Positions 7,613-43,207 of a stretch of 51,087 nucleotides of DNA are shown here, one piece after another. This DNA is from Promethearchaeota archaeon. GTDB lineage: Archaea > Asgardarchaeota > Lokiarchaeia > Sigyniarchaeales > SOKP01. How positions within the stretch are numbered: position 1 is the first letter of the stretch; every line of letters begins with the position of its first letter. Under the pieces are notes generated by a model that was not told the origin of the DNA, made no database searches, and saw only the letters and a program-made list of their open reading frames with translations. The DNA is taken from contig JBHLOI010000023.1 in NCBI GenBank assembly GCA_048940645.1, positions 1 through 51,087 on the forward strand, read 5' to 3'. The position numbers and the translations under genes were made by a program.

Positions 7613-8542
7613 TTAATACTCTATTTTTGTATGCTTTAGGTAATCAAAGGCAGAATAAGCAGCAATTACACCTTCAGAGACTCCTGTAATTGCTTGCTTA
7701 AAGGGAGCATCCGCCACATCTCCAGCAGCAAATATTCCAGGTATATTGGTCTCGGACTTTCGGTTTATCTTAATTTCTCCTTTTTCATTTGTTATTACTC
7801 CTACTCTTTTTGCTATATCTGAATTTGGAAACGAACCTATTTCGATAAATACACCATCAATGTTCAATTCTTTTCCACTGTCAAAAATGACTGATTTAAC
7901 ATTAGTATCCCCTTTAATTTCTACTATATTTGTATTATATATGATTTCGATTTTCTCGTTTTCATATACCCGTTTTTTATTTATCGGTTCGGCTCTAATT
8001 TCCTGGCCACGATAAATAATATAAACCTTTTTAACATTTTGGGCTAAAAACAAAGCTTCTTTTGCTGCGGAATCACTCCCACCAATTACACACACAGTTT
8101 TATTTTTATAAAAAGGGCCATCACAAGTTGCACAGTAAGATACTCCTCTTCCAGTGAATTCTTCTTCACCTGGAATTCCCAACTTTCTACGTTCTGAACC
8201 AGTTGCGATGCAAACTGTAAATGCTTTAAATATCTGAAAAAAGGAATGTAATACAAAATGCGTCTCGTTTTTTTCTATACTACTTATCTCATCTGATATA
8301 TATGGTATACTTAATGAATCCATATGATCCTTAAACATGTCCATTAATCCTTGCCCACTTGTTGAGGTTATTCCTGGATAATTCTCTACAAGATGAGTTG
8401 TCGCAATTAGACCACCAAATGTCTTTCCTATAATCAAAACATCCATCGCGAATCGTGCTGCATAAATTGCACATCCTATAGCAGTTGGCCCTCCTCCCAA
8501 GACAATTAAATCATATATTTTTTCTAAATCAATACTTTCCAT
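7613..8542 (-). CDS. trxB: thioredoxin-disulfide reductase
   Basis: GGGP FAD motif, GRGVSYCATCDG active site, GIFAAGD. ATG 8542 lies immediately after the PDO stop. Confidence 0.93.
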   Translation of the reverse strand: MESIDLEKIYDLIVLGGGPTAIGCAIYAARFAMDVLIIGKTFGGLIATTHLVENYPGITSTSGQGLMDMFKDHMDSLSIPYISDEISSIEKNETHFVLHSFFQIFKAFTVCIATGSERRKLGIPGEEEFTGRGVSYCATCDGPFYKNKTVCVIGGSDSAAKEALFLAQNVKKVYIIYRGQEIRAEPINKKRVYENEKIEIIYNTNIVEIKGDTNVKSVIFDSGKELNIDGVFIEIGSFPNSDIAKRVGVITNEKGEIKINRKSETNIPGIFAAGDVADAPFKQAITGVSEGVIAAYSAFDYLKHTKIEY

Positions 8543-8543
8543 A

Positions 8544-9227
8544 TCAATATTGAACACGAAAATTACCTCCTATTAACGCCCTTAGGATTTCATTGGGTCC
8601 AACCATACCAACTAGTGTTTTTTGGTCATTGATAATAGTGTAAGGAACCCCTGCCGCGTCATAGTACTGACCAATATCTGGATTTGCCATAATATCTACA
8701 ACAACAGTTCTAACCTTTCCTTTAGACGCAATTGCAAATTGATTTGCGATTGTAACTACAGTTGGGCAATAAGGACAGGTCGAAGTGATCATTATCTTAA
8801 TTGTTGACGGCGCAATTCTCTCTAAGTTTTGCCTAATTGTAGCTTCATAATAATTGGGCATTCCTGCAAAAGTAAATATAGACTGAATAAAAGGTTGGAT
8901 CTCACCACCTTTAGGAGCAGCTAAATATCTAATTACTTCTCTTCCCATATCATCAATGAAAAGTATTGTCGGAACACGTGAAATATCGTATTTTCTGGCA
9001 AATTCTGGATTATCATCAATTGATAGTTCTTCTATTGTAAGCATACCATTTGAATTTTCTTCATACACCCTTAATAACGCCATAAATTGCCCACAATCCA
9101 TACAAGCTCTTATCTTTGTTCCATCAGCTTGAACCTTCTGTGAGGTAAATACTTTTAATTTAACAGCCTTTGTTAATTTAGCCATTTCTGTTTTTATTAT
9201 TTCTTTATATCTATCGTCTTGAGACAC
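8544..9227 (-). CDS. protein disulfide oxidoreductase (PDO, two thioredoxin folds)
   Basis: CMDC and CPYC motifs, SRVPT and AGVPYT cis-Pro loops. Confidence 0.88.
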   Translation of the reverse strand: MSQDDRYKEIIKTEMAKLTKAVKLKVFTSQKVQADGTKIRACMDCGQFMALLRVYEENSNGMLTIEELSIDDNPEFARKYDISRVPTILFIDDMGREVIRYLAAPKGGEIQPFIQSIFTFAGMPNYYEATIRQNLERIAPSTIKIMITSTCPYCPTVVTIANQFAIASKGKVRTVVVDIMANPDIGQYYDAAGVPYTIINDQKTLVGMVGPNEILRALIGGNFRVQY

Positions 9228-35739: not shown

Positions 35740-38127
35740 TTAAATTTCAAAATGATATTTATTTTCTCTTTCTACAGGATATCCCTTTCTTTGCCAAACT
35801 CTCATCCCACCTGATAAGTTTCTTACATCTCTATAGCCTTCTCTTACTAATAGTTGGGCAGCCATCATTGATCTTCCACCAACAGCACATAATACTACAA
35901 TTTCTTTGTCCTTATATTCATTTAATAAATCTACATTACGTATTAATTTTCCTAAAGGAATTAATTTCGCATCTTTAATATTACCCACATTATGGTATTC
36001 TTGTGGTTCTCTTACATCTACTATTATTGCAGGACAATCGTCTGTACCTAATCTATCAAAAAGTTCATCAACACTGATTTCTGACAACGCAGGGGCGTCT
36101 TGGGTTCTTAATTCCGCTCTAGTTTTCTTCCTAACTTTAATTGGAGCTTTAAGTTCATCCGAAGTTACTTCACCCTTTTCAAGAATTGCAACTAGTTTTC
36201 CTTCTTCTTTTCCTAGCTTTAGTAGATTTACACTTTCATTTAGCTTCACATAAGCTTCTACGCTAGATTTAAATCCTGGATCTGTTGCATAAATTTTTAG
36301 TTTTTTACCTTGAGATAGATTTTCAAGCCCTTGTATAAGTGCATTTAATGGGCCTGGACATGAAATACCACACGCATCAACTTCCATAAGTTCATCGATT
36401 TCAAAAGTTTTTCTATCAATCATTTCTTCGATGACTTCTTCTGGTGGTCCACAAGCTTCGGCAATTTCTTGTGTAGTGGCAGCTGCAGTCTTAAATAGTT
36501 TATATCCCCCAGTAAGGTTATAAACACTATTAAAACCTTTTTGTACCAATAATCTTGTTGTTAAATACCCTCTAAACCCAACCTCACAAAACACATAAAT
36601 ATCTTTATCTTTTGGTATTTCATTTAATCTATTTCTCAACTCTAAATCATTAATATTTACAGCATTTTCTATACTTCCAACTGCATATTCTTCTGGAGTT
36701 CTGACATCAAGAAGGAAACTATTATTTTGTTGTATTTCTGGCAAATCTTCCCAATGCCATATGGGATGATCGCCTTTGATAACGTTTGCCCCAACAAATC
36801 CTGCCATATTCACAGGATCTTTTGCCGAACCAAATGGAGGCGCATAAGTAAGTTCTAACTCTTCTAAATCAAATACTGTTCCACCAAACTTTATTACAGT
36901 TGAAATTACATCTATACGTTTTTCTGTACCTGAACCTCCAACTGCTTGAGCTCCTAAGATTTTTCCAGTAGGAACTTCAAACAGTAACTTTAAAGTGATT
37001 GGAGTGGCTCCAGGATAATAACCAGCATGGTTATTTGGATGCACATATATTTTTTCATATTTTATATCTGTATTCTTTAGTTGTTTTTCACTTAATCCTA
37101 CAAATGAAACTGTTAGATCAAAAACTTTTAAAACAGAAGCTCCTAAAACGCCTTTATATTTAGAAAATCTTCCAGCAATGTTATCAGCTGCGATTCTTCC
37201 TTGCTTATTTGCAGGACCTGCTAAAGGAATCGCTGTTGGTTCATTTGTGACAAAATTTTTAGTCTGAACTGCATCTCCCACAGCGAAAATATAAGGATCT
37301 GAAGTCCGCATATTTTCATCTACAACTATGTGTCCTTTTGGTCCGAGTTTTAAACCTGCATCTTTTGCTAACTTATTTTCAGGTTTTACTCCAATAGTTA
37401 AGATAACAATGTCAGTTTTAACTTTTTTACCGCTCTTTGGTATCACATAATTACATTTATTCTGATCACATTCAAATGAATCTACAGCATCTCCTAATTG
37501 AAGGCATACCCCGTTTAAAATTAATTCTTGATGTACAAATTGAGCCATCTCTTTATCTAATGGTGCCAGCACTTGATCCAGCATTTCAACTATTTTGACT
37601 CTAATTCCTCTTTCTTTCAAGTTTTCAGCCATCTCTAAACCGATATATCCACCCCCAATTATAGTGGCATGTTTCACTTCATTTTTCTCGGCGAACTCTC
37701 TTATTTTCACAGAATCTGGAATTGTTCTAAGTGTAAAACTTGGTACTTCTTCCAATCCTTTAAATGGGGGAACTATTGGAGATGCACCAGGAGAGAGTAT
37801 TAAGTAATCGTATTCTAAACTATATTCTTTATCAATTTCAAGATTTTTAATATTTACAGTCTTTTCTTCCTTATTAATTGATAATACTTCATGATTTACC
37901 CTCACATCAATATTAAATCTATCGAAAAAATCTTCAGGAGTCATCAGTTCTAACTGTTCACGTTCTTTAATCACATTTCCTACATAATAAGGTAAACCAC
38001 AATTTGCAAATGAAACATAAAGGCCCTTTTCAAGAACAATTATCTCGAAATCCTCCCTTAACCTTCTTAAACGAGCTGCTGCAGAAGCGCCTCCAGCAAC
38101 TCCACCAATAATTACAACTCTTTGCAT
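35740..38127 (-). CDS. CoA-disulfide/persulfide reductase fused to rhodanese, TusA and a second rhodanese
   Basis: GGVAGG, SFANCGLPY, YAPPF; rhodanese FCEVGFR; TusA DACGISCPGP; rhodanese LCAVGGRS. Confidence 0.92.
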   Translation of the reverse strand: MQRVVIIGGVAGGASAAARLRRLREDFEIIVLEKGLYVSFANCGLPYYVGNVIKEREQLELMTPEDFFDRFNIDVRVNHEVLSINKEEKTVNIKNLEIDKEYSLEYDYLILSPGASPIVPPFKGLEEVPSFTLRTIPDSVKIREFAEKNEVKHATIIGGGYIGLEMAENLKERGIRVKIVEMLDQVLAPLDKEMAQFVHQELILNGVCLQLGDAVDSFECDQNKCNYVIPKSGKKVKTDIVILTIGVKPENKLAKDAGLKLGPKGHIVVDENMRTSDPYIFAVGDAVQTKNFVTNEPTAIPLAGPANKQGRIAADNIAGRFSKYKGVLGASVLKVFDLTVSFVGLSEKQLKNTDIKYEKIYVHPNNHAGYYPGATPITLKLLFEVPTGKILGAQAVGGSGTEKRIDVISTVIKFGGTVFDLEELELTYAPPFGSAKDPVNMAGFVGANVIKGDHPIWHWEDLPEIQQNNSFLLDVRTPEEYAVGSIENAVNINDLELRNRLNEIPKDKDIYVFCEVGFRGYLTTRLLVQKGFNSVYNLTGGYKLFKTAAATTQEIAEACGPPEEVIEEMIDRKTFEIDELMEVDACGISCPGPLNALIQGLENLSQGKKLKIYATDPGFKSSVEAYVKLNESVNLLKLGKEEGKLVAILEKGEVTSDELKAPIKVRKKTRAELRTQDAPALSEISVDELFDRLGTDDCPAIIVDVREPQEYHNVGNIKDAKLIPLGKLIRNVDLLNEYKDKEIVVLCAVGGRSMMAAQLLVREGYRDVRNLSGGMRVWQRKGYPVERENKYHFEI

Positions 38128-38403: not shown

Positions 38404-39564
38404 TTGAAGAAAAAGATAATTATAATAGCATTGTTATCCATAATTATAATTTCAGCACTGACATTTTCTATTATTTGGTATTTGAATTCAAATACAAAAA
38501 AAATATTTGGTTATGATATAGAACTGGCTTTTCCGAATCTTACATTTATAAATCCTGTAGGAATTTATTCACCAAATGATGGTTCGAATCGTTTATTTAT
38601 CTTGGAACAAGGAGGCAGGATTTTTTCTTTTAACAATAATTACACTGTGCAGCAAAAAAATCTATTTCTTGATATATCTGATCTTATTATTACTGGAGGT
38701 GAAAGGGGATTATTAGGCTTAGCTTTCCACCCTAACTTTTCTCAGAATGGATATTTCTATTTAGATTATACAGATACTAATGGAGATACAGTAGTTTCTC
38801 GTTTTCAGGTGAATTCAGGTAATAAAAATTTTGCAAATAAATCTAGTGAATATATTTTATTAAATGTAGAACAACCCTATTCGAATCATAATGGAGGACA
38901 GATAGCATTCGGACCAGATGGGTATTTATATATAGCTTTAGGAGATGGAGGTTCAGCTGGAGATCCACTGGGAAATGGTCAAAATCGAAATACATTACTA
39001 GGATCAATTTTACGAATTGATGTTGATTCAGCTACACCTTATGCAATTCCTAGTGATAATCCTTTTTTTGGAAATTTAAATGGTTATAGGGAGGAAATTT
39101 ACGCTTTTGGTTTACGAAACCCATGGCGTTTTAGTTTTGATCCTATTACTGGTAATCTTTGGGCAGGAGATGTAGGACAGAGCGCATGGGAAGAGATTGA
39201 TATAATTGAGAGTGGAAATAATTATGGATGGAGTGCAATGGAAGGAAATCACCCATATTCTCCTGGTATCAATGTTACAAAAGTAGAACCTCCAATATAT
39301 GAATATGGACATAATATTGGACATTCCATTACTGGAGGATTTGTTTACCGCGGTTTTAAATTACCAGAATTATATGGTAAATATATATATGGCGATTATG
39401 AATATGGTCAGGTATGGGCATTAAAGTATGATGGATTAAATCCAAGTAATAATTCAATTTTAGTTGATACAACTCTAGAAATAACTTCATTTGGTTTAGA
39501 TGCTAATTATGAAATCTTTTTTTGTGCTTTCAACGGTAAAATTTATACAATTAAAAAAATTTAG
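38404..39564 (+). CDS. glucose/sorbosone (PQQ-type) dehydrogenase family beta-propeller, membrane anchored
   Basis: GERGLLGLAFHP, NHNGG..FGPDG.LY...GDGG, GLRNPWR.SFD, NYGW. Confidence 0.9.
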   Translation: MKKKIIIIALLSIIIISALTFSIIWYLNSNTKKIFGYDIELAFPNLTFINPVGIYSPNDGSNRLFILEQGGRIFSFNNNYTVQQKNLFLDISDLIITGGERGLLGLAFHPNFSQNGYFYLDYTDTNGDTVVSRFQVNSGNKNFANKSSEYILLNVEQPYSNHNGGQIAFGPDGYLYIALGDGGSAGDPLGNGQNRNTLLGSILRIDVDSATPYAIPSDNPFFGNLNGYREEIYAFGLRNPWRFSFDPITGNLWAGDVGQSAWEEIDIIESGNNYGWSAMEGNHPYSPGINVTKVEPPIYEYGHNIGHSITGGFVYRGFKLPELYGKYIYGDYEYGQVWALKYDGLNPSNNSILVDTTLEITSFGLDANYEIFFCAFNGKIYTIKKI

Positions 39565-39686: not shown

Positions 39687-40481
39687 TTAATTTTCTAAAT
39701 AAATTACAGTATCAATAAAAAGTTCATAATTCTCATCCTCATCAAAGTCATGAATTACTGCCTTTTCTACATCATCAGTCCCTTTTACTTCAAGTAATTC
39801 TGATTCATATAGTATTTTAATGTCTGAAAGTTTTAACTTTTTCTTTAGTTCTTCTGATCCAGGTATATTTTTAGCTGAAGTTAATACAATGACTCTTCCT
39901 GTATATTTTGTTAATTCCAGAGCAAGTTCAAGCGATTTATCCCCTGTATCTAAAATTAAAACTCTTTTGTCTTTAAATTTAAATAAATCTTTTACTTCTC
40001 TATAAACTCCTTTTCCAATAAAATCTTCTAAACCAAGAATGACTTTAATATCAGGTACACTACAAGAAGCTGCAACTTCAACTTCAGAAGTAGTACCAAG
40101 TCTATAATTATCGATTGCGGCTTTTAATGCGTCAGAAGCTAAATTAGAGCAATGCATTTTAATTGGTGGTAATCCTTCTAACTCATCAGCAACATCGGTT
40201 CTGGTAATTTTATAAGCATCTTCTACCTTCATACCCTTTGCCATTTCTGTTGTCATTGAAGATGTTGCAACCGCAGAACCACAACCAAAAGTTCTAAATT
40301 TAATATCTTCAATAATTTCATCTCCATCTTCGTTTTTACCAATTTTTAAAAACATTTCCATCAAATCTCCACATACAGGATTGCCTACTTTTCCATACCC
40401 ATCCGGATTTTCGATTACACCTACATTTCTTGGGTTTCTAAAATGATCTAGAACTTTTTCAGAATATTGAGTTGATTTCAA
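39687..40481 (-). CDS. iscU: IscU/NifU-type Fe-S scaffold fused to a degenerate TrxB NADPH-binding domain
   Basis: YS..V.DHF.NPRN, GNPVCGD, FGCGSA, LPPIKMHCS; C-terminal ~120 aa align by eye with the central domain of the window's TrxB. Confidence 0.88.
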   Translation of the reverse strand: MKSTQYSEKVLDHFRNPRNVGVIENPDGYGKVGNPVCGDLMEMFLKIGKNEDGDEIIEDIKFRTFGCGSAVATSSMTTEMAKGMKVEDAYKITRTDVADELEGLPPIKMHCSNLASDALKAAIDNYRLGTTSEVEVAASCSVPDIKVILGLEDFIGKGVYREVKDLFKFKDKRVLILDTGDKSLELALELTKYTGRVIVLTSAKNIPGSEELKKKLKLSDIKILYESELLEVKGTDDVEKAVIHDFDEDENYELFIDTVIYLEN

Positions 40482-40485
40482 TCTT

Positions 40486-41676
40486 TTATTTCACCTCTTT
40501 ATATTGTTTTAATAATTCAGGAGGAGTTAAAGGAGACATTATTCTTAATCTTTTTACTGCTCCAGGTATTACCTCAATTAATTTGTTAATGTCAGTTTCT
40601 TTTGTTGTTCTTCCCAAAGAAACTAAAAGACTACCATGTGCCTCTTCATGTAATAAGCCCATCGCTATTAAGGTATGTGAAGGTTCTAAGGTTTTAGAAG
40701 AACATGCAGAACCAGTAGCAGCAGCAATTCTATGTGCTTTTAACTCCAAAATTAATGATTCTCCTTCAATGTAATCAAATCTAAAATGAGCATTATTGGC
40801 CAGCCGCCTTTCTGGATGACCATTTAAATGGGAATTTGGTATTATTTCAAGCACTTCACTGATTAATTTATCTCTTAATCCTTTAAGATATTCGACTTCT
40901 TTTGGCATTTCATTTTTTGTAATTTCAGTAGCTTTAGCAAATCCAACAATACCTGGTATATTTTCAGAACCTGATCTGAAACCTCTTTCTTGACCTCCTC
41001 CTATAATAATCGGATTAACTCTCACTCCTTTTTTCAAATATAGGGCTCCAACTCCACGCGGCCCATAAATATCGTTCGAGGATAAGGTGAGTAAATCAAC
41101 AGGTATTTTTTGAACATCAATGGGTATTACACTCTCACTCGCAACAGCATCAGTATGTAATAAAATCTTGCGTTCTTGAGCGATTTTACTTATTTCATCA
41201 ATAGGTTGGATTGAACCTACTTCATTACTTGCTGTAGAGATAGAAATTAAAATAGTGTCTTCCTTAATTAACTTTTTTAATTTATCTAATTTTACAACAC
41301 CATAAGTATCAACAGGAACTCTATTTACTGTGAATCCTAATTTTTCTAAATTTTTACTAATATTTAGAATTGAAATATGCTCAATCTCAGAAATAATGAT
41401 ATGATTCCCCTTTCTTTTATAAAAGTTAGCAGCACCTATTAGTGCTAAGTTATTCGATTCTGTTGCACCCGATGTAAAAATAATATCTGATGGATTCGGA
41501 GCATTTATAAAATCTGCTACTTTCTCCCTTGACTTGTCTAAAATGTCAGTGGCTATATCGCCATCAGCATGTAAAGAAGCAGGGTTCGCAAATTTATCTC
41601 TAAAGTATGGCAACATTTCTGAGATAACTCTTTCATCCACAGGCTTAGCTGCTTGGTTATCTAAATATATGCTCAC
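40486..41676 (-). CDS. iscS: IscS-like protein lacking the PLP Schiff-base lysine
   Basis: FTSGATESNN, GGGQE.G.RSG.EN, GSACSS present; SSNDIYGP replaces SxHKxxGP; AGGAGG SD before GTG start. Confidence 0.9.
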   Translation of the reverse strand: MSIYLDNQAAKPVDERVISEMLPYFRDKFANPASLHADGDIATDILDKSREKVADFINAPNPSDIIFTSGATESNNLALIGAANFYKRKGNHIIISEIEHISILNISKNLEKLGFTVNRVPVDTYGVVKLDKLKKLIKEDTILISISTASNEVGSIQPIDEISKIAQERKILLHTDAVASESVIPIDVQKIPVDLLTLSSNDIYGPRGVGALYLKKGVRVNPIIIGGGQERGFRSGSENIPGIVGFAKATEITKNEMPKEVEYLKGLRDKLISEVLEIIPNSHLNGHPERRLANNAHFRFDYIEGESLILELKAHRIAAATGSACSSKTLEPSHTLIAMGLLHEEAHGSLLVSLGRTTKETDINKLIEVIPGAVKRLRIMSPLTPPELLKQYKEVK

Positions 41677-41735: not shown

Positions 41736-42095
41736 TTAAAACCATTGAGTAGCATCTGCTTCTAGTACTAAATCATTTAAAGTAGCTGCACCTACGATTT
41801 TCGCTCCAGGAATTAAATCAACTTTATCCCAGCCTAGCATCCTTTTTGATGCTTCGCACACTAAGATTTCAACACCCATATCGAGTGATTTATCTATCAT
41901 CTCTTTAACTGTAGGAAACTCCCCAACTTGAATATTTTCTGCTACGCCAGGTTTTAAAATTTTTAAACCCATTCCGAGATAATATACTGTTGCCTTAATA
42001 TCCATTGCTCTAGCTGTTTGTGCTAAAACTAAAGGCGAGTATTGTCTCTCTGGGGCATCAGTTGTTTGAACATACAAAATGTATTTTTCTTCCAT
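41736..42095 (-). CDS. DsrE/DsrF-like sulfur relay protein
   Basis: LA..A.AM...A.VYY...G, GVEILVCEAS, GAKIVGAAT. Confidence 0.85.
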   Translation of the reverse strand: MEEKYILYVQTTDAPERQYSPLVLAQTARAMDIKATVYYLGMGLKILKPGVAENIQVGEFPTVKEMIDKSLDMGVEILVCEASKRMLGWDKVDLIPGAKIVGAATLNDLVLEADATQWF

Positions 42096-42111: not shown

Positions 42112-42351
42112 TTACTTTTTTCTAAAATAAAATATCAAATCTTCTCCTTCTCTATGAAATTCAACTAATTCAGTATCTGTTCTTTTTGCCCATCTCTTTA
42201 AATCCTCTTCGGCAGCTGGATCATCTGCCAATACTTTGAAGCATACTCCACTCTCCAATGTTTCTGAAAAATTTCTAACTTCAAATAAAGGTTCAGGGCA
42301 ATATAAACCTCTGGTATCTAACTCATAATCATATTTTATTTCTTGTGTCAA
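42112..42351 (-). CDS. tusA: TusA/SirA family sulfur carrier
   Basis: LDTRGLYCPEP, VLADDPAA.ED..RW. Start placed at TTG 42351, 8 nt after an AGGTGA SD. Confidence 0.9.
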   Translation of the reverse strand: MTQEIKYDYELDTRGLYCPEPLFEVRNFSETLESGVCFKVLADDPAAEEDLKRWAKRTDTELVEFHREGEDLIFYFRKK

Positions 42352-42571
42352 ATTATATATCACCTTCAAAATACAGATTAATTACTAAATTCAATATATT
42401 TACAGTTTCTTACACAATTAAATATTCACATTATAATTTAGTAGAAAAGAATAAGTACTATAAACAGAAAGTAATGTATCTACTAAACAACCTTTATAAA
42501 ATATAAATTATGTAAAAATTTGCTCATATACCAATTTAAAACTAAAGAATAAGAAATATCGTTTTTTCTTT

Positions 42572-43207
42572 TTACATTCCAGCCAAATTTTTAATATGCT
42601 TTACACCCTCTACAGCATCATCTGCAAAGTCATCGGCTCCGAGTTTCTTAGCAAGTTCCATATTCAATGGCGCTCCTCCTACTATAAGTTTTACTTTATC
42701 TCGTAATCCAGCAGTTATTAATGACTCATGAACGACTTTTATTTGTTCAACAGTCATAGTTAGAAGTGAACTTAAACCTATTATTGTCGCACCGCTCTCT
42801 TTCACTTTCTCAACAATTTTGTTTTCATCGACATCCATACCTAAATCATATATCTCAAAGCCAGAACTAAGGAGGAGTGAGGCCAGTATATTCTTTCCAA
42901 TATCATGGTTATCACCTTTAACTGTTGCCAATATAATTTTCACTTTCTCCTCTGATTTATCGGTAGCAGCTAAAGCTGGTTGCAGTATTTTAAATGCTTC
43001 TTTCATGGTCTCCCCAGCTAAAACTAATTCAGTTAAATAATACTCTTTTTCCTCATATCTTCTCCCAACTTCATCCATGCCTTTTGTTAATGCATCTAAT
43101 ACATCAAATGGATCCTTATCGTCTACCTCTAAAGCTTCTTTCACAGCATCTGCAATATCGTCTACTTCTAACTCAATAATTAATTCGGTTAATTTCTCAA
43201 AATCCAT
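42572..43207 (-). CDS. corrinoid (B12-binding) protein, methyltransferase-cognate type
   Basis: Cap domain L..GM.EVG..YE..EY, GDNHDIGKN (DxHxxG), GLSSLLT, VGGAP. Confidence 0.92.
   Translation of the reverse strand: MDFEKLTELIIELEVDDIADAVKEALEVDDKDPFDVLDALTKGMDEVGRRYEEKEYYLTELVLAGETMKEAFKILQPALAATDKSEEKVKIILATVKGDNHDIGKNILASLLLSSGFEIYDLGMDVDENKIVEKVKESGATIIGLSSLLTMTVEQIKVVHESLITAGLRDKVKLIVGGAPLNMELAKKLGADDFADDAVEGVKHIKNLAGM

Follow-up and report, generated by a model that had tools for sequence, protein, structure and literature searches.

A degenerate NADPH-type domain on an archaeal IscU scaffold and its possible role as a tethered anchor on a lysine-less IscS

Introduction

Why would an iron-sulfur scaffold protein carry, behind a conserved IscU head, a domain of the thioredoxin reductase (TrxR) family that has lost its catalytic motifs? 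The question is raised by a gene in a 51,087-nucleotide stretch of DNA from a Promethearchaeota archaeon (contig JBHLOI010000023.1 of assembly GCA_048940645.1), the whole of which we call the window. A sequence-only reading had described the gene product as IscU fused to a stripped NADPH domain of TrxB, and had proposed that this domain, here called the tail, recruits thioredoxin-fold partners or senses nucleotide. The explanation that we favor, to which we give as a whole a probability of about 0.55, is that the tail is the relic of an IscU-fused flavoprotein resembling ferredoxin-NADP reductases (FNRs), kept as a tethered anchor on IscS.

Results

The fusion gene and its IscU head

39687..40481, minus strand: whole gene, IscU plus degenerate TrxR-family NADPH domain (264 aa, TTG start, stop codon at 39687-39689)
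40101..40469, minus strand: IscU/MisU scaffold domain, residues 5-127 (C37, D39, C67, H110, C111 and LPPIK present)
40041..40100, minus strand: flexible linker, residues 128-147 (pLDDT below 50 at residues 134-145; includes Cys140)
39696..40040, minus strand: degenerate NADPH-type Rossmann domain, residues 148-262 (without FAD domain, CxxC or HRR; Gly-loop DTGDKS)

The start codon of the fusion gene lies 4 nt past the IscS stop codon, and positions 39687-40049 hold codons 145-264 and the stop of its reading frame. Residues 5-127 match Pfam NifU_N with an E-value of 8e-46 (155.7 bits against a cut-off of 22), and the fusion protein scores 190.7 bits with the NCBIfam IscU/MisU model TIGR03419, above the cut-off of 187.9. 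The ligand set of an IscU scaffold is complete, with three cysteines, an aspartate by the first of them, a histidine before the third, and an LPPxK motif; C37, D39, C67, H110, C111 and LPPIK (L104-K108) are invariant among 26 aligned homologues. In Foldseek comparisons the head was 71% identical to the archaeal IscU 7c8m and 63% identical to Archaeoglobus fulgidus IscU (4eb5_C). The gene product serves as scaffold in an iron-sulfur assembly system of the minimal IscS-IscU (MIS) type, with cluster assembly and transfer as its predicted activity. The earlier statement that this is not the NifU architecture agrees with the score against TIGR02000, which reached only 141 bits against a cut-off of 273 and covered positions 3-123 of 290, the N-domain alone.

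The genome encodes five NifU_N genes including the fusion, and at least two of the other four are single-domain IscU proteins. NifU_N genes are found on contigs C54, C5, C38 and C69 (loci L001, L002, L004 and L005), and one single-domain copy (L002) adjoins genes for cysteine synthase and serine acetyltransferase.

An AlphaFold model of the fusion protein, built with 30 homologues in the alignment (mean pLDDT 85.5), shows two well-folded domains on either side of a disordered linker of about 20 residues. The pTM of 0.52, together with a pLDDT below 50 at residues 134-145, indicates that head and tail have no fixed mutual arrangement. We considered intramolecular docking of the tail on the IscU head and rejected it, as the model gives no confident arrangement of the two. 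The linker contains Cys140 (40062-40064, minus strand), which is invariant in 26 Loki-type homologues, recurs in several distant copies (P0123, P0126 and P0131), is absent from others, and is thus not an invariant of the wider family; this residue might accept persulfide or serve as a fourth ligand of the cluster.

Homology and lost motifs of the tail

7613..8557, minus strand: genuine TrxB with CATC present, used as the comparator for the tail

The tail comprises 115 aa. The thioredoxin-disulfide reductase model TIGR01292 matches residues 148-260 (E 9e-13) over profile positions 117-231 of 300, a stretch that corresponds to the NADPH domain exactly and to nothing else; the score of 47.7 bits lies far below the cut-off of 343 for a full-length TrxR, and Pfam Pyr_redox falls slightly under its cut-off. 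By BLASTP the tail is 30% identical to the TrxB of the window across 106 aa (E 1e-9). Searches with phmmer against PDB sequences and with Foldseek on the AlphaFold model assigned the tail to the NADPH domains of TrxRs and TrxR-type FNRs, and the head to IscU, the top Foldseek match of the tail being 2zbw_B (E 1.6e-11). The fusion of IscU with a TrxR-family NADPH domain that had been read from the letters is thereby confirmed by profile, sequence and structure comparison.

Its description as lacking a FAD domain, a CxxC and a usable Gly-loop was also correct. The tail reads Y-R-E-V where the TrxB of the window has CATC, its pyrophosphate loop is DTGDKS in place of GGGDSA, and the 2'-phosphate motif HRR is replaced by TSA. 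There is no FAD-domain sequence N- or C-terminal to the tail domain in the fusion protein; the gene stops right past the last strand, and a gene on the opposite strand follows about 120 nt further downstream. The tail thus has the NADPH-domain fold of a TrxR-type ferredoxin-NADP+ reductase without the FAD domain and intact NADPH site that such an enzyme combines.

A stripped TrxB that had lost its CATC is, on the other hand, not what the closest relatives suggest. A profile of the tails matched solved structures of the FNR type best (2zbw, 3e-15; 3lzw, 6e-13; 8c16 and 6gas, 1e-11), with true TrxRs coming after them at about 2e-10, and the nearest relatives in nature are the IscU-fused flavoproteins described below. 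Since all of these lack CxxC, the disulfide motif was probably never present in the ancestry of the tail.

In a wider alignment of tails, with copies 38-72% identical to that of the window, the Gly-loop is not conserved (DTGDKS, DRGEKS, FDTGDES, EFDQKS, YKDNKS, HRSDES). Its first glycine is replaced by D, E, Y, H or F, HRR has become T-S/P-x, and the segment equivalent to the CxxC and thioredoxin groove (residues 160-172) is likewise variable. Twelve residues are invariant, namely R173, A187, T194, R196, V197, K222, G234, E239, E248, Y252, L254 and D257, and these are unchanged between Asgard and Desulfobacterota-type copies that are overall only 38-50% identical. Variation in both the Gly-loop and the groove segment makes it unlikely that the tail binds NAD(P)H in the canonical way or docks thioredoxin. 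On these sequence features, the tail cannot bind FAD and very probably does not bind NAD(P)H either; it contains no redox cysteines and is a pseudo-enzyme domain from which all redox chemistry has probably gone.

These results bear directly on the proposal that the tail recruits thioredoxin-fold proteins (PDO, glutaredoxin or thioredoxin) at the old TrxR groove, or senses NAD(P)H. The NADPH domain of real TrxRs does bear a thioredoxin-binding groove, the window itself encodes a TrxB and hence has a member of the family, and conservation at G180 of the Gly-loop exceeds 90%. However, the groove segment and the rest of the Gly-loop vary within the family, the 2'-phosphate motif is missing, the nearest relatives are enzymes of the FNR type that lack CxxC and are not thioredoxin reducers, and the invariant residues lie on a different surface, at the predicted interface with IscS. 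We consider this proposal quite improbable. What survives of the sequence-only reading is the docking module itself, a non-catalytic docking role being the best reading of the domain, with IscS as the predicted partner in place of thioredoxin-fold proteins.

Distribution of the short form

A search of 5.8 billion proteins returned at least 120 full-length homologues, 70-98% identical and spread over many independent assemblies; most carry the label Lokiarchaeota or Promethearchaeota, and their annotation is NifU-like only. Relatives are encoded in 314 GTDB species genomes, and the best 80 of these 314 are all Asgard. Among 301 genomes sampled from the phylum, strong matches (E <1e-37) occurred in families f1-f4, which make up the window's own class, and in 72 of the 76 genomes of f9, a second large Asgard family; the other Asgard families gave only weak matches, of the strength expected from an ordinary TrxR. 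At the strong level the tail is kept in nearly all f1-f4 and f9 genomes. At E<=0.001 it is found in 88 of 90 high-quality genomes of the phylum, a tally that includes the weak matches of ordinary-TrxR strength. The fusion is real and under selection, and the concern that it might be a chimera of one assembly is laid to rest by the number and independence of the homologues.

A distant short form, P0123, lies on contigs that also encode a TetR regulator and a hybrid histidine kinase. For this TetR, the nearest named relatives are from Desulfacyla and Desulfobacteraceae (72-79% identity), so the P0123 copy is probably bacterial and the short form is probably present on a Desulfobacterota contig. 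No free-standing tail was found in a search of representative proteins; candidate stand-alone tail genes proved to be fragments, the short matches starting at an internal IscU methionine (MHCSNL...) or at a contig edge (P0132).

Metagenome-assembled genomes (MAGs) labelled Odin-, Hermod-, Hod- and Thorarchaeota (L006, L008, L011, L025 and others, with JBHL... records) carry cassettes that are up to 97% identical to the one in the window and share its gene order, and their phylum-level labels look mutually inconsistent.

The operon and its neighbors

40486..41676, minus strand: IscS/MisS, lysine-less (SSNDIYGP, Cys325 loop kept); operon partner and predicted target of the tail
41736..42095, minus strand: DsrE-family sulfur carrier (Pfam DsrE, E 2e-13), same operon
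42112..42369, minus strand: TusA sulfur carrier (Pfam TusA, E 1e-17), first gene of the cassette
42572-43207, minus strand: corrinoid-binding protein (B12-binding plus B12-binding_2), directly upstream of TusA
38404-39564, plus strand: glucose/sorbosone-dehydrogenase-like gene with hydrophobic N-terminus, between iscU and the CoADR-rhodanese gene
35740..38127, minus strand: CoA-disulfide-reductase (CoADR)-like flavoprotein-rhodanese-TusA-rhodanese fusion, 795 aa, four domains (Pfam)

The cassette is conserved well beyond the window. IscS lies immediately upstream of the IscU fusion on the same strand at 78 of 80 Asgard loci, TusA precedes IscS at 68 of the 69 loci with enough flank, and DsrE stands between the two at 34 of these 69. 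Distant short forms (L087 and L090) retain the order TusA-DsrE-IscS-IscU. The corrinoid-binding protein is found further upstream at 47 of 65 eligible loci, and the CoADR-rhodanese-TusA-rhodanese gene is downstream on the same strand at 51 of 66; its product may be a persulfide-reducing partner of the system. The glucose/sorbosone-dehydrogenase-like insertion also occurs at L013, L016, L039, L050 and L073.

The IscS of the window is closely related to A. fulgidus IscS2 (4eb5_A, E 8e-133); in both proteins SSND stands where the PLP-lysine motif would be, and both have the Cys loop. An aspartate thus replaces the lysine that forms the PLP Schiff base (SSNDIYGP), and Cys325 is retained. Every IscS that we examined in cassettes of the short form, or of the long form described below, is lysine-less, reading SSND, SSNE or ASND, and a canonical IscS with its lysine (SAHKLYGP) is encoded elsewhere in the genome (G000:C54:99538-100710). 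An internal stop in the IscS of L008, considered as a selenocysteine codon or the sign of a pseudogene, is merely the natural stop, placed three codons early.

A long form and the origin of the tail

Following up intermediate-strength matches in Asgard family f21, we identified a 448-aa protein (L094:1010-2353, plus strand) with NifU_N at residues 5-127 and a complete Pyr_redox_2 flavoprotein at 143-431. Its GGGPAGL, GNGDQA and C-terminal GD motifs are intact, and it has no CxxC. Proteins of this long form (about 445 aa; P0302-P0419 and L100-L102) occur in Jordarchaeia/Freyarchaeum, many Methanoperedens, Methanosarcinales and ANME-2, where they are annotated as NifU, IscU 2 or thioredoxin reductase. 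With both FAD-domain halves and the GxGxxA loop retained, the long form is expected to work as an active NAD(P)H flavoenzyme.

Gene order around the long form is TusA, IscS, a 136-aa ORF and long IscU in a Jordarchaeial genome (G038), TusA-DsrE-IscS-long IscU-FMN_red in a Methanosarcinaceae MAG, and DsrE-IscS-long IscU-flavodoxin in Methanoperedens; IscS is lysine-less in all three operons. The 136-aa ORF between IscS and long IscU in the Jordarchaeial genome (L096:6364-6771, plus strand) has no Pfam match. The window protein shares with this family its head, an NADPH domain with an acidic hairpin, and the operon of TusA, DsrE and lysine-less IscS; the complete FAD domain of the family is the part that it lacks.

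Maximum-likelihood analysis of NADPH domains places the short tails in a single clade (100/100) and the long forms in another (95/97), with weak support (58/73) for these two clades being sisters. A tree of IscU heads sets the fused heads apart from the two single-domain paralogues of the genome (96/97); with only two outgroup rows, it is unable to test a single origin of the fusion. In this enzyme family the NADPH domain is an insertion within the FAD domain, so a lone NADPH domain arises only by truncation. Given this route, and the head and operon common to both forms, the simplest history is that a long-form ancestor lost both halves of its FAD domain. We infer this direction of evolution, in which the short tail is most simply a cut-down relic of the long-form flavoprotein.

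An ancestor that was itself a reductase invites another explanation, in which the tail is an adaptor for a different flavoprotein or electron donor, such as the CoADR-rhodanese-TusA-rhodanese protein or a flavodoxin, and couples persulfide reduction or electron supply to the scaffold. The frequent position of the CoADR-rhodanese gene downstream on the same strand would suit such a role, as would the flavodoxin or FMN_red genes that follow long-form operons. Yet the invariant surface is still kept at L087 and L090, whose flanks are without CoADR-rhodanese, and this surface is predicted to fit the always-adjacent IscS, which makes an adaptor role distinctly unlikely in our view.

Our search of the literature, whose coverage is incomplete, found no description of either fusion, short or long. 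We regard as new the long-form family, the operon common to both forms, and the predicted IscS interface of the tail.

Predicted docking of the tail on IscS

The complex was predicted from four chains, namely an IscS pair, one TusA and the tail (residues 148-262), the last being the partner that was scored, with an alignment for each. The tail scored ipSAE values of 0.61, 0.60 and 0.62 on IscS, and the best of three controls scored 0.00. A mark of 0.61 was attained by 58 of 80 solved complexes and by 2 of 110 mismatched pairs, counts that hold only roughly here, as the custom alignments and the four-chain set-up are unlike the calibration. Contacts agree between runs to at least 88%, and the pLDDT of the partner is at least 87. 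To our knowledge there is no solved complex of this kind, so that recall from a known structure is unlikely. The model supports binding of the tail to IscS beside the catalytic Cys loop.

Predicted contacts on one IscS protomer are made by residues 121, 123-124, 132, 135-136, 337-340, 342-343, 345 and 387, and on the tail by residues 171-173, 195-196, 217, 222, 235-236, 239, 252 and 254-256. Six of the twelve family-invariant tail residues are among the 14 interface residues (hypergeometric P 6.6e-4), and the predicted interface is more conserved than the remainder of the tail (0.75 against 0.59, one-sided P 0.018). Low-error contacts in the model include two conserved pairs of opposite charge, IscS K132 with E239 and IscS E345 with K222; IscS D123 adjoins R173 and R196 of the tail, which touch IscS T124 and G340. 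Both K132 and L342 are invariant in the IscS partners of short forms, and these positions are E and K in the canonical IscS of the genome, and F and K in A. fulgidus IscS. Of the interface residues, long forms retain R196, Y252 and L254 only in part.

This site can be compared with what is known of partner binding to E. coli IscS. IscS I337 is the equivalent of E. coli R340, where charge reversal weakens binding of ThiI, IscX, CyaY and TusA, and not of IscU (PMC2854127). The published IscU footprint on E. coli IscS comprises 309-316, E347 and 379-391 (PMC2854127), and the predicted tail patch, at 340-348 and 390 in E. coli numbering, abuts it in a model from which IscU is absent. The predicted site, adjacent to both the Cys loop and the IscU site, could be reached by a domain on a 20-residue tether from IscU. 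The patch includes the equivalent of R340, yet neither E334S/R340S nor D346K/E347K affects Fdx binding in E. coli (PMC3750173), and we therefore do not claim that the tail mimics ferredoxin on the Fdx/CyaY patch.

The concentration of invariant residues at this interface also speaks to two further explanations. The first is that the tail is an evolutionary remnant with a generic role in folding, solubility or spacing and no specific partner, as might be expected of a domain whose catalytic motifs are all gone, the more so as a single-domain IscU works with a similar lysine-less IscS in A. fulgidus (4eb5). Against this, twelve positions have stayed invariant between Asgard and Desulfobacterota-type copies, nearly all genomes of the families with strong matches retain the tail, and in the complex model the conserved residues cluster in a single patch; we hold a purely generic remnant to be unlikely. 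The second is that the tail dimerises IscU and thereby aids the coupling of two [2Fe-2S] clusters into one [4Fe-4S] cluster. The dimeric archaeal IscU 7c8m is closely related to the head, and the dimers in that work are reportedly relevant to cluster conversion. However, the dimer of low-Mr TrxRs is built by FAD domains and not by NADPH domains, and the invariant surface is already explained by the predicted contact with IscS, so that dimerisation by the tail seems to us very improbable.

Discussion

We propose that the tail began as the NAD(P)H-binding domain of a CxxC-less, FNR-like flavoprotein of the TrxR family. The Loki-type lineage would have deleted the FAD domain in both its halves while the nucleotide site decayed, with selection retaining one surface, formed by R173, R196, K222, E239, Y252 and L254. 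This surface is predicted to sit on the lysine-less IscS by the Cys325 loop, beside the IscU-binding site. On this view the tail would be a second anchor, tethered to the scaffold and keeping it on IscS, and may control how the sulfur carriers TusA and DsrE reach the Cys loop.

Considered jointly, the two forms suggest a wider picture, which we put forward tentatively and at less than even odds. The cassette could represent an undescribed, cysteine-independent line of iron-sulfur assembly that uses carrier persulfide as its sulfur source, and in which the long form's own NAD(P)H flavin reductase replaces the pair of ferredoxin and FNR, its NADPH domain doubling as an IscS anchor. Loki-type Asgard archaea and some Desulfobacterota would have kept the anchor only, and would receive electrons via other proteins such as the CoADR-rhodanese.

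The short tail alone, as a pseudo-enzyme domain, is a modest finding, of value mainly for the light that it throws on the surrounding system. The gene family offers a handle on the source of sulfur for an IscS without the PLP lysine, and on the source of electrons where no ferredoxin is encoded. One operon exists in two forms, with a complete flavin reductase on the scaffold in one and a conserved, probably IscS-binding remnant in the other, and their comparison leads to testable predictions on electron supply and complex architecture in archaea near the eukaryotic ancestor.

Comparison with known systems

NifU, in which IscU is followed by a [2Fe-2S] ferredoxin-like domain and Nfu, resembles the window protein in having an IscU-type N-domain with extra C-terminal domains; unlike NifU, the window protein has neither the central Cys-rich domain nor the Nfu domain.

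Closer likeness is found in the IscS2-IscU system of A. fulgidus (4EB5/4EB7) and the archaeal IscU 7C8M, to which the head is 63-71% identical. In A. fulgidus, as in the window, the two genes are adjacent, and IscS2 resembles the IscS of the window in its Cys loop and in having SSND where the PLP lysine would lie. The IscU proteins of A. fulgidus and 7C8M end after the C-terminal helix, whereas the window protein adds a linker and a 115-aa Rossmann domain; the cassette of the window also differs in having TusA, with or without DsrE, ahead of IscS, and its IscS has K and L at positions 132 and 342 where that of A. fulgidus has F and K.

The best solved sequence relatives of the tail are TrxR-type FNRs (2ZBW, Bacillus subtilis YumC 3LZW, and Bacillus cereus FNR2 6GAS/8C16), which have the fold of the tail and are naturally without CxxC. 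Unlike the tail, they are complete two-domain flavoenzymes with the GGGDSA loop and NADPH site intact, and they are not fused to IscU.

The long-form IscU-flavoproteins have the same IscU head and the same operon of TusA, DsrE, lysine-less IscS and IscU, and CxxC is absent from both forms. The long form keeps both FAD halves (GGGPAGL and GD motif) and the GxGxxA loop, whereas the window protein is without all of these. Long form and short tail nevertheless share the positions of K222, E239, E248 and D257, together with the acidic hairpin.
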